This document shows, piece after piece, positions 30,001 through 33,000 of a DNA stretch of 64,000 nt. The DNA is taken from NCBI RefSeq assembly GCF_053078305.1, contig NZ_CP166879.1. One strand, 5' to 3'. Position numbers: made by a program. The stretch's first letter is position 1; each line of letters begins with the position of its first letter.

Positions 30001-33000
30001 ATACCGGAGCAGCAGGTGCCCTTCCTGGGGAAAATTTCAGGTGAGGTGATGCCGTATGCTGACCAGCAGAAGATGTACGACCGGATGACGGAGGTCGCGC
30101 AGTATCACGCAGAGCTGAAGAGTCTGACTGGTGCAGAAAGAACGGCGTTCATTGACGAGAACAACGGAAAATTGTCGATGAACGGGCTTATGCAGGATAC
30201 CCGGAAGAGACTGAAGGATTTGCGTAAACAGCGTGATGCCATTTACGCCGACAGTACTCTCAGTCTGGCGCAACAGTCGGCGATGGTGAAATCGGTAGAG
30301 CGGGATATGAAAATTGCCGTGGATCGGTTTAACCGCGAGTACAACAAAAAAGTGGGAGTGGAGTAAAGAACATGCCCCGTACGGAAGTGCGGGGCTGATA
30401 TAAAGTCACGCAGGTAAATATTGTAGATGAACTGAACAGTTAAATTCGGATAATGTTGTGATATTGATCAGAAATTACAGTGTAAGCAGATGTGAAATAT
30501 CATGCCTTATGGGGGGGATTTTTCTTATTTCAGTCCCTCCGTTGCTCCATGTCTCAGGAGTGAATACGCCAAGAATAGGGTAAGATAATTCCTGGTTGTT
30601 TAAAATTAAATATTATGATTTTTCTCAGAATATCCTCATGCCAGCCAAAACTAATCAGATTTTCTTTATGAATCTGAGGTGTGGCTACTGATACGTGTGC
30701 AAATAAATAATGAGGAATCATACATGGGTAACCGCTTGCTGCGAAGAGCTGTTTCTGTTGCTATCAGTGGAACGTTGTTGGGTCTTGGTGTGGGTGTGTC
30801 AGCTGCAGAAGATATGGCTGGGTTGGATGTATATAGCGTCGTTGTTGAAGCCGATGGTTGGACAAAAGAAAAATCACCTGTGTACGGTAGTATATATAAG
30901 GTCTATTACAATGAATCTTCTAACTGGGGAACGGTTCGCTATATCAGAGACGGGAAAAATGAAACTTTATTTAACTTTGACAATGAGGGGGATATTTATG
31001 TTGTGAATAAAGAACACTCAATAAGATATAAGGTGCATGAGCCTGTGTTGAAGGATTTTGCCCGAATGGCAGAAAAGCTTCGGACTGGCGATAAAGTAGG
31101 TCACAGACTGGATGAGGAAGAAGTTCGTCGCATTACGAATAAAGTTAATAATCTATCAAATACTATTATTAATCCTGAAGTATTAAAACAATCGGATTTC
31201 ATCGCATCAGGACCACGTCCGGAAGGTGACAGTTTGGTTCAGGCTAGTGCGGCGGGCGAACTCGCTCTGGCTGTTGGAGAAGGTGCAGCGGCGGAGGAAA
31301 AGAATTCAACAGCTGTTGGTTCATGGGCTAGTGCTCATGGGAGACAGAGTACTGCATTAGGAAGTGGGGGGCAGGCTTATGCTGATGGTTCAACCGCGTT
31401 GGGAAGTTATTCTCATGTGGATGGTTCATCCGTTTATGGCGTGGCATTAGGGGACAGCTCTGTTGTGGGTGAAAATGCCCCCGAAGGCACTGCACTGGGA
31501 AGCAGAGCGGAAGTTTCTCATAGAAATAGTGTTGCTTTAGGGGCGAGAGCGCACACTACCCGTGATAATGAAGTTTATATCGGCTACGTAGAAGAAGCGG
31601 GCAAGGCTTATAAAACTCGTGTGCTTGGTGGCCTGAGTGACGGTACTCGTCCCTCAGATGCAGCAACCGTTCGTCAGGTTGACCGTGTAAAAGACAGTGT
31701 TGAGCAACTGGCTCAGGATACGAATACCCGCCTTGTAGTCGAAGCGAAAAAGTCTCGTGAATATACAGACTCCAGAACCACCGTTGGTGTGAATGCGGAC
31801 GGAACCCTGACCAGCGCTGATGGCGCTACAAAAACGATTGCTGTTAATGACGGTCTCGTTGCTCTGTCCGGCAGAACAGACCGTATTGATGCTGCAGTTG
31901 GTAGCGTTGACCGCCGGGTTACTAAAAATACACAGGCTATTCAGTCCAATACTCGCCAGTTGCAGGAACATAATGCACGCCTGAACAGCCAGCAGCGTCA
32001 AATTCGTGAGAATCACGAAGAGATGAAGCGTGCAGCAGCACAGAGTGCAGCGCTGGCGGGGCTTTTCCAGCCGTACAGTGTGGGGAAATTCAACGCCACT
32101 GCTGCCCTGGGGGGGTACAGTGATAAACAGGCTGTTGCCGTGGGTGTTGGTTACCGTTTCAATGAGCAGACAGCAGCGAAAGCAGGTGTGGCAGCGAGTG
32201 ATGGCGATGTGTCCTACAACGTAGGTGTGAACTTTGAGTTTTAATTGCTGACAGTGACATGAAGCATGACGGCAGGCGTGGAGTTTTGCCTGCCGTTTTT
32301 TCTCATGTGAGCATGAAACAGGTGACAGCGATGAAAGTGATTCTGGCGACCCGCAACCGTTATCTGGAGTATGGCCTGCAGCAGATGCTTGAGGGGTACA
32401 GGATAATACTGGCGAGGGAGTTTTTTACACCAGAGAACAGGAAGAGTGTACCGGCACATGATGAGTCATGGGTGATAATCTGTGATGCCCTCCTTGGCAG
32501 GCTGATGTGCTGCATGTTTCAGGGACGCCGTTATCTTCAGATTGATGCGGAAGATGTTACGGGGCGCCTGGAGACGTACAGGAAAATCCGGAATGGTGAG
32601 TGGGTACATAATACGTATGCGCGACCTCTGACGATGTCCGAGATGGTGGTGATGTTTGGATACGTGTACCGGGAGTCAAAGCCCTGCCATCTTGCCCGTG
32701 AAATGGGGATAAACACGAAGACGGTGAACACCTTTCTGTATATGGGACTTGGTAAAAATGGTCTTAAGTACAGGAGTGTGAAGCACCTGGTTGGACGTGC
32801 GTAGCCGGAATGCATATTCGTGAGTCGGGTAATGAGAGTGGAACGGTGGCAGTGAGAATGGAACAGAAAAAAATCAGATGCGGAAAGCGGAAATACACAG
32901 CGGGTGCGATGTGCTTCATGCTGTTTGTATGGCTGGGGGGTGTGGTGACATTCTGTGTGCTGGCCGCTCTGATAATGAGGTGAAAACGGAAGAGAGTTTA

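Follow-up and report, generated by a model that had tools for sequence, protein, structure and literature searches.

Which protein is encoded directly behind the giant phage gene at the right end of a prophage in Escherichia coli, and does its gene form a unit that was acquired, and is regulated, apart from the phage? The locus in question lies in a window of 64,000 nucleotides (nt) taken from contig NZ_CP166879.1 (NCBI RefSeq assembly GCF_053078305.1), to which all coordinates refer unless another locus is named. An earlier note, made from the sequence alone, had described it as an Eib-like trimeric autotransporter adhesin with an AT-rich regulatory region in front of it. The present analysis leads, with high confidence, to an intact E. 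coli prophage eib gene, encoding an EibG-like immunoglobulin-binding trimeric autotransporter adhesin. It is likewise very probable that this EibG/EibE-like family member represents non-structural cargo of a 933W-like lambdoid prophage. Both the family and its canonical cassette were first reported in 2000; the locus holds an uncharacterised allele in that setting, and the identification is correct but ordinary.

The scan of the window for open reading frames (ORFs) shows that the giant ORF (21943–30366) stops at 30366 and that it is followed on the + strand by a second long ORF, whose end lies at 32244. The mechanical call for the latter begins at a GTG codon, 30679. The ATG at 30724 has been taken as the start of eib, because the other eib genes begin at the position aligned with it and a GAGGA sequence precedes it by 7 nt. 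The ORF seen previously is real, but the product reported as 507 amino acids (aa) has 506, the higher number counting codons with the stop included. The translation ends in NVGVNFEF, as had been stated. The gene and its parts are as follows.

30712–30716, + strand: Shine-Dalgarno sequence GAGGA, read from the sequence
30724–32244, + strand: eib-family gene, 506 aa plus stop
30724–30804, + strand: predicted signal peptide, aa 1–27, MGNRLLRR...GVSA/AE, with a basic n-region, a hydrophobic core and a VSA motif
30805–31203, + strand: Eib-specific N-terminal domain, aa 28–160, EibG type, AT-rich (phrog_33417)
31204–31677, + strand: head segment, aligned to EibD 2xqh, with three weak Pfam YadA_head matches
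31678–32058, + strand: stalk, aligned to 2xqh and 2xzr, divided into a right-handed coiled coil (aa 319–351), a saddle (aa 352–383) and a left-handed coiled coil with the predicted immunoglobulin G (IgG) Fc-binding segment (aa 384–445)
31888–31890, + strand: codon for D389 (= EibG D391), at the positions of the RTDRID(Y/A)AVG motif
32059–32241, + strand: YadA-type beta-barrel anchor, aa 446–506, with four predicted strands (Pfam, 2lme)
32268–32303, + strand: intrinsic terminator after eib, a stem at 32268–32297 (11 bp, 7 G-C pairs) followed by a T-run

The alignment to Eib and YadA references that the earlier note had proposed as a check revealed strong similarity, far above chance. When all PDB sequences were searched, residues 161–415 were matched by the EibD passenger structure 2xqh (E = 6.2e-76) and residues 432–505 by the YadA membrane anchor 2lme (E = 5.4e-18), and the EibD stalk structure 2xzr was found at E = 5.4e-11. 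The Pfam YadA_anchor model is covered completely (1–60/60, E = 1.4e-15) and YadA_head gives three weak repeats; with the NCBIfam YadA model the protein reaches 104 bits, where the cutoff is 750. Among the PHROGs families, phrog_10464 matches residues 18–504 (E = 2e-165), and a separate N-terminal family, phrog_33417, matches residues 14–160 (E = 1.6e-31); a domain of this kind has been described for Eib proteins (PMC12511318). The YadA-type head, neck, coiled-coil stalk and four-strand anchor claimed from the sequence can therefore be placed on the EibD structures and the YadA anchor, and the C-terminal strands survive careful alignment. The same four strands (457–465, 470–478, 484–492 and 497–505) are present in a low-confidence monomer model from AlphaFold2 (AF2), which was used for its secondary-structure pattern only; a low predicted local distance difference test score (pLDDT) is expected for an obligate trimer. 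This pattern fits the expected layout: (i) a beta/alpha N-terminal domain; (ii) short strands about 7 residues apart at 175–264, corresponding to a beta-roll; (iii) a helix at 310–349; (iv) a beta insert at 351–375, the saddle; (v) a helix at 385–447, followed by the terminal strands. The n, h and c regions of the signal peptide were read by eye.

By analogy with YadA and EibD, the Sec signal peptide would carry the protein, which is expected to form a homotrimer, to the periplasm. Three C-terminal segments of four strands each would then build a 12-strand barrel in the outer membrane, and the passenger would be exported as a trimeric “lollipop”, with the N-terminal domain leading, followed by the beta-roll head, neck, right-handed coiled coil, saddle and left-handed coiled coil.

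The protein has been compared with the products of the ECOR-9 eib genes in GenBank, with the JNEC-KY208 copy of EibG, the functionally studied Eib of LEE-negative Shiga toxin-producing E. coli, and with the allele of strain JNEC-KY171, EibF and EibH lying outside this set. The overall identity amounts to 88% for the JNEC-KY171 allele, 76% for EibG, 64% for EibE, 56–57% for EibC and EibD, and 37% for EibA. The values for the single segments are given below.

Signal peptide: EibG 33%, JNEC-KY171 allele 33%
N-terminal domain: EibG 65%, JNEC-KY171 allele 67%
Head: EibG 65%, JNEC-KY171 allele 100%, EibD 57%
Neck: EibG 96%, JNEC-KY171 allele 100%
Right-handed stalk: EibG 100%, JNEC-KY171 allele 97%
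Saddle: EibG 84%, JNEC-KY171 allele 100%
Left-handed (IgG) stalk: EibG 100%, JNEC-KY171 allele 100%
Anchor: EibG 95%, JNEC-KY171 allele 100%

Taken together, the saddle, left-handed stalk and anchor are 84–100% identical to EibG and 88–98% to EibE, with invariant columns in the alignments. Every other Eib compared begins with an MSKKFT... signal peptide, to which that of the window protein is only about 30% identical, and its N-terminal domain shares about 30% of its residues with EibC/D/E, being closest to that of a 568-aa relative (P0005). From these alignments the protein presents itself as a mosaic Eib allele. At the nucleotide level, 30732–30883 has no homology to JNEC-KY171, though the rest of the locus is 91–98% identical, and the 5' end of the allele has thus been replaced locally relative to that strain. 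No more than 61 residues separate the EibG subtypes alpha to gamma (PMC4352079). Judged by this standard, the allele falls outside EibG proper, and by its sequence it falls inside the “EibG-H” cluster of a 2025 preprint (bioRxiv 10.64898/2025.12.25.695649).

Binding of IgG Fc is predicted, since the left-handed stalk segment does not differ from that of EibG and D389 is kept. The residues D389 and A390 stand opposite D391 and A392 of EibG, and the same D-A pair occurs in both EibG and EibA. Substitution D391A in EibG abolishes IgG Fc binding and leaves chain formation intact, while deletion of the region from head to saddle has the opposite effect, with chain formation lost (bioRxiv 10.64898/2025.12.25.695649). 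The left-handed stalk of the window protein should accordingly be able to bind human IgG Fc non-immunologically, which is its most likely activity, and the head-to-saddle region should drive homotypic cell-cell contacts, chain-like adherence and aggregation. The same preprint gives “EibE D378-Y388” as an Fc-binding pair; the adjacent Asp-Tyr pairs in our alignment are D387-Y388 in EibD and D370-Y371 in EibE, so that the published numbering looks like a slip.

The surroundings of the gene have been delimited by homology, and the following features are involved.

21943–30366, + strand: giant 2807-aa phage gene of the LPD5/LPD1/MuF_C/LPD38 type, matched by phrog_616 over its full length; backbone, outside the cassette (Pfam families taken from identical loci)
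30374–30395, + strand: G+C-rich hairpin after the giant gene, without a T-run, the last backbone sequence (-20.2 kcal/mol, z = -4.4)
30396–37347, + strand: mobile cargo cassette of about 6.9 kb, with the upstream region, eib, orf-156 and eaa, bounded by homology limits
32331–32804, + strand: orf-156 homologue, 157 aa, with a predicted degenerate receiver and a LuxR/GerE-type helix-turn-helix (phrog_6585, E = 2e-93)
33175–37167, + strand: eaa-type SPATE, 1330 aa from MNKIYSL..., with Peptidase_S6 and Autotransporter domains
37736–40408, - strand: rcsD, the chromosomal flank of the prophage right end

Homology to the giant-gene end of phage PhiR12_3, which has no insert there, stops at exactly 30395. 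Homology to eib loci in other backbones (P-EibC/D/E, P-EibA, the EibG prophage of JNEC-KY208 and PhiR12_3) begins at 30414; the lambda-like prophages among them, P-EibA and that of JNEC-KY208, align through 37347, and the P-EibC alignment reaches 37168 and resumes at 37350–37557. Because the backbone homology ends at 30395 and that of the eib loci spans 30414–37347, the intervening DNA is regarded as a mobile unit, and the upstream region, being homologous across eib loci, belongs to it. These breaks bear out the independent acquisition suggested by the earlier note. Its further description of eib as known prophage cargo agrees with the GenBank records of P-EibA/C/D/E, in which the order is eib-orf156-(orf60)-eaa, and the position at a prophage end is confirmed by rcsD directly downstream. 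The prophage itself is 933W-like, with Rha, terminase, portal, an N4-gp56-type capsid, tail fibres, Lom and the giant gene.

Two observations concern the position of the prophage and of its cargo. The prophage sits between rcsB and rcsD. In JNEC-KY171 (NZ_AP045167.1, 1719563–1783907) the integrase adjoins rcsB and the eaa end adjoins rcsD, and the whole prophage stands between the two members of the rcsDB unit, rcsD and rcsB. In PhiR12_3, eib-orf156-orf60 is found between a DUF4376 tail-fibre gene and an internal-virion-protein gene (locus L006, 19521–22297); the window has an empty spacer of 77 bp at the equivalent junction (13606–13682) and carries the cassette at the end of the prophage. 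On sequence comparison, the same cargo occupies alternative insertion sites in one phage type.

The second part of the question concerns the DNA between the giant gene and eib. The 357-bp stretch 30367–30723, pointed out before as AT-rich, has a GC content of 37.5% against 52.2% for the whole window, which places it among the lowest 2% of 357-bp windows. The tract extends over the first 480 nt of eib (40% GC), the remainder of the gene having 52.6%. Two features have been distinguished here.

30414–30723, + strand: AT-rich eib upstream region, presumed regulatory, homologous to the eibC/D/E/G upstream regions
30472–30497, + strand: AAATTACAGTGTAAGCAGATGTGAAA, a 26-bp block invariant in six eib upstream regions, candidate regulator site

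The upstream region is about 71% identical to those of eibC/D/E/G and 91% identical to that of JNEC-KY171, and it is present in 40 of 5426 complete E. coli genomes. The invariant block shares sequence with a weak -35-like hexamer; the -10 that goes with it is not kept in other eib loci. The AT-rich stem_loop annotated upstream of eibC/D/E folds no better than shuffled sequences, either there or at the equivalent position of the window, and the short repeats of the upstream region look like chance. At the other end of the gene, the terminator folds at -27.7 kcal/mol (z = -5.75), at a position where a stem_loop is annotated in the P-EibA/C/D/E records. Published expression work supports control of eib apart from the phage late operon. 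EibG is raised in static culture (PMC4352079, PMC5450701), and a passage of PMC7649339 citing Sandt 2002 presents IbrAB as an activator of eib genes, with IbrB-dependent Eib expression. The eib gene of the window may thus be regulated independently, and silencing of such AT-rich DNA by H-NS is plausible.

It could be argued instead that the AT-rich 357 bp are a mere recombination junction or spacer, and that eib is expressed by read-through from the late operon or the giant gene, or is essentially silent. A consensus scan for sigma-70 promoters speaks for this and against a separate control of eib, as it found three promoter-like sites where 3.5 were expected, a number at the level of chance; the single site within the upstream region is the one with the unconserved -10, and no promoter could be located. 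The Rfam scan of 30200–33300 likewise yielded nothing except a sub-threshold chance match on the hairpin after the giant gene, and since that hairpin has no T-run, read-through is possible. Against the spacer reading, the region has been retained alongside eib in different phage backbones, including the 26-bp invariant block. In addition, eibG constructs with 168 bp of upstream DNA restored chain-like adherence, though from multicopy pGEM, where vector promoters are possible (bioRxiv 10.64898/2025.12.25.695649), and EibG expression in a lysogen responds to culture conditions and not to phage induction (PMC4352079, PMC5450701). The spacer explanation is therefore considered unlikely, and a regulatory upstream region that travels with eib is preferred.

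Several points weigh against the functional side of the identification. In the signal peptide, N-terminal domain and head, the protein is substantially different from all characterised Eibs (EibG: 33%, 65% and 65% identity), and the adhesion phenotype and head-dependent binding cannot be transferred safely. Both immunoglobulin binding and adhesion of this allele are what we infer from homologues, and the AF2 monomer is of low confidence (pLDDT 49.6). As to IgA, which some Eib proteins bind, the right-handed stalk belongs to the EibE/EibG type and shares only 33% of its residues with EibD; Leo and co-workers reportedly located the IgA site of EibD in this segment in 2011, and because of the low identity IgA binding by the window protein is uncertain.

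The divergence of the head and N-terminal domain also fits a Cla-like chain-forming adhesin, that is, a trimeric autotransporter of the same architecture which confers chain-like adherence but does not bind immunoglobulin. ClaA and ClaB, which are related to EibG, behave in this manner towards IgG Fc (bioRxiv 10.64898/2025.12.25.695649). The Cla proteins, however, have neither the N-terminal domain nor the conserved residues for IgG binding and occur in other genomic contexts, and the N-terminal domain is also absent from Yal proteins. The window protein has this domain (phrog_33417) and, unlike Cla, combines D389 and a stalk segment 100% identical to EibG with the canonical eib context, which makes a Cla-like protein very improbable and favours the immunoglobulin-binding Eib. 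A structural or host-recognition protein of the phage (tail fibre or virion-associated adhesin) in place of a bacterial surface protein is the least credible of the explanations, for although the C-terminal half matches PHROGs labelled “tail” or “adhesin” (phrog_17426, phrog_26246) and eib comes after tail-fibre genes in PhiR12_3 and the lambda-like prophages, such a role has been rejected on account of the Sec signal peptide, the outer-membrane beta-barrel anchor, the gene's own upstream region and terminator, its location behind the last backbone gene and apart from the tail module, and the characterised homologues, which are bacterial surface proteins.

The gene following eib had been called a LuxR-type regulator. 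The ATG at 32331 has been taken as its start, in agreement with the alignment of the ECOR-9 orf-156 proteins. Neither Pfam nor NCBIfam gave a significant match with the single sequence, and its single-sequence PDB matches have E values of about 0.4. In a search of 1.8 billion representatives, only 30 clusters are related to it. The first match of the family profile is GerE 1fse (E = 0.0038), with VraR and VqmA next, and of 15 family members one reaches Pfam GerE (1.8e-4) and one Sigma70_r4_2 (6.8e-6). The AF2 model (pLDDT 90, predicted template modelling score 0.85) consists of an N-terminal domain of short beta-alpha repeats and four C-terminal helices, and its top 27 Foldseek PDB matches are all of the NarL/FixJ class (RcsB, DesR, LiaR, EvgA, FixJ, NarL), with E values of only 4e-3 to 3e-2, probabilities of up to 0.98 and TM-scores of 0.3–0.47. 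The LuxR-type label therefore holds at the level of the predicted fold, where it is reasonable, and is weak by sequence. Reading of the sequence showed that the canonical phospho-acceptor pocket is absent, with beta1 ending in ILATRN without an acidic pair, while an Asp is kept after beta3 (IICD). If the protein is a regulator, it is probably an atypical, phosphorylation-independent one.

It has been considered whether orf-156 encodes a cassette-borne, phosphorylation-independent NarL/RcsB-like regulator of eib and/or eaa, possibly acting together with IbrAB; this is a tentative proposal, of which we remain rather doubtful. If it were true, a control switch would be built into the eib cassette. 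The gene orf-156, “hypothetical” in all annotations, is the only lead of the locus with some research value. Hints towards the regulator reading come from the confident, response-regulator-like model and from homologues of orf-156 elsewhere: one of 44% identity stands directly after an Eib-like autotransporter gene (locus L019, 764–1237), and another of 39% identity after RTX-like HemolysinCabind genes (locus L016, 3200–3667). An IbrA-like gene (PAPS_reduct + DUF3440) is located about 6 kb from the latter (L016, 9548–9667), and in locus L018 (2195–3208) a second GerE-type gene adjoins an orf-156 homologue.

The last gene of the cassette had been named a SPATE, and its sequence agrees with this. 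Pfam identified Peptidase_S6 (1.5e-83), Beta-sol_PIC_HAP1 (5e-12) and the Autotransporter beta-domain (2.7e-17), TIGR01414 matches at 1.2e-69, and the translation contains the catalytic motif GDSGSP within GTSGDSGSPLF. The linkage of eib and eaa on prophages has been known since Sandt and Hill 2000 (PMC3153244). The founding eib/eaa loci came from the commensal ECOR-9, and Eaa expression and activity were unverified as of a 2010 review (PMC3153244). Of the “compact virulence cluster” proposed for the window, the stacking of eib, orf-156 and a SPATE stands, while the word virulence is, for these two reasons, an overstatement.

Other features of the window concern the prophage and its flank. Residues 2365–2695 of the giant gene product show a weak match to DarB-like antirestriction proteins (phrog_10089, E = 4.9e-26); by PADLOC, neither this gene nor eib nor orf-156 was matched to a defence system. 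An AT-rich island (16872–18347, 39–46% GC) within the tail region forms a second surface-protein cargo site of the prophage. It contains a “moron” membrane-associated protein (phrog_425) and an Ail/Lom-type outer-membrane protein which matches complement-resistance and OmpX families. The tail-fibre gene 10538–12892 contains a stretch of 62% GC with a strong A-over-T skew of 0.38, with the peak at 11001–12000, and matches collagen-like tail-fibre families. Among RNA features, MicF (40720–40813) is in its usual place between rcsD and ompC, and three tandem 113-bp repeats at 48801–49139, between chromosomal genes, score as naRNA4 (REP-type); the Rfam scan of the whole window detected only these two, and no tRNAs were found.

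The exact sequence has already been deposited many times, and both the Eib family and the cassette were already known. The identical 506-aa protein occurs on at least 24 public E. coli contigs (P0121), under RefSeq and GenBank names such as “YadA-like family protein” and “hypothetical protein”. In all six contexts shown, out of 24 contigs, the giant LPD5/LPD1/MuF_C/LPD38 gene, eib, the 157-aa gene, the Peptidase_S6 autotransporter, rcsD and ompC follow one another in this order, and contig JPQG01000003.1 of GCA_000736735.1 is 100% identical across 30000–37800. Some match is found in 51 of 5426 complete E. coli genomes, but only three of these cover at least 80% of the query, at 90–92% identity. 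The gain is one of annotation, from “YadA-like” or “hypothetical” to an EibG/EibE-like immunoglobulin-binding adhesin with a predicted IgG Fc site, and little beyond. The eib-orf156-eaa cassette is mobile and occurs at no fewer than three different positions in lambdoid prophages, and the 5' part of the gene (signal peptide, N-terminal domain, head) is shuffled among alleles, which is relevant to the typing of adhesins of LEE-negative Shiga toxin-producing E. coli.

Compared to YadA of Yersinia, the prototype trimeric autotransporter adhesin, the window protein shares the anchor, the YadA-like head repeats and the lollipop layout, whereas the Eib N-terminal domain, the saddle and the immunoglobulin-binding stalk are missing from YadA. 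With EibE, EibC and EibD of ECOR-9 (AF151676, AF151674 and AF151675), the upstream region, terminator and orf-156 are shared, and with EibC also eaa. The stalk and anchor of EibE are 97–100% identical to those of the window protein; EibC and EibD, in contrast, differ in the right-handed stalk (33%), have insertions of 11 and 7 residues and carry Tyr at the position of A390. The SPATEs EaaA and EaaC of the ECOR-9 prophages, at about 95% nucleotide identity, have the same domains and the same place after eib and orf-156; the orf-60 region that lies between orf-156 and eaa in P-EibC is unaligned here (window 32765–33132).

EibG of JNEC-KY208 (WP_062864037.1) has the same architecture, a similar length (508 against 506 aa) and an N-terminal domain of the same type, and in both cases a 157-aa gene and then an S6 peptidase follow downstream. 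For the subtypes alpha to gamma of EibG, however, a span of 88% has been reported (PMC4352079), and the overall identity of 76% to the window protein lies below it. EibG also differs in location. In its lambda-like prophage, as in P-EibA, the gene follows J, lom and tail-fibre genes, and the EibG copy lies close to yciE, while the window eib comes after the giant gene of a 933W-like prophage and adjoins rcsD. The JNEC-KY171 allele (WP_471722370.1, cluster P0002) agrees in the complete locus order, namely giant LPD5 gene, eib, orf-156, S6 peptidase and rcsD; its identity of 97–100% extends from residue 161 to the end of the protein and falls to 67% in the N-terminal domain and 33% in the signal peptide.

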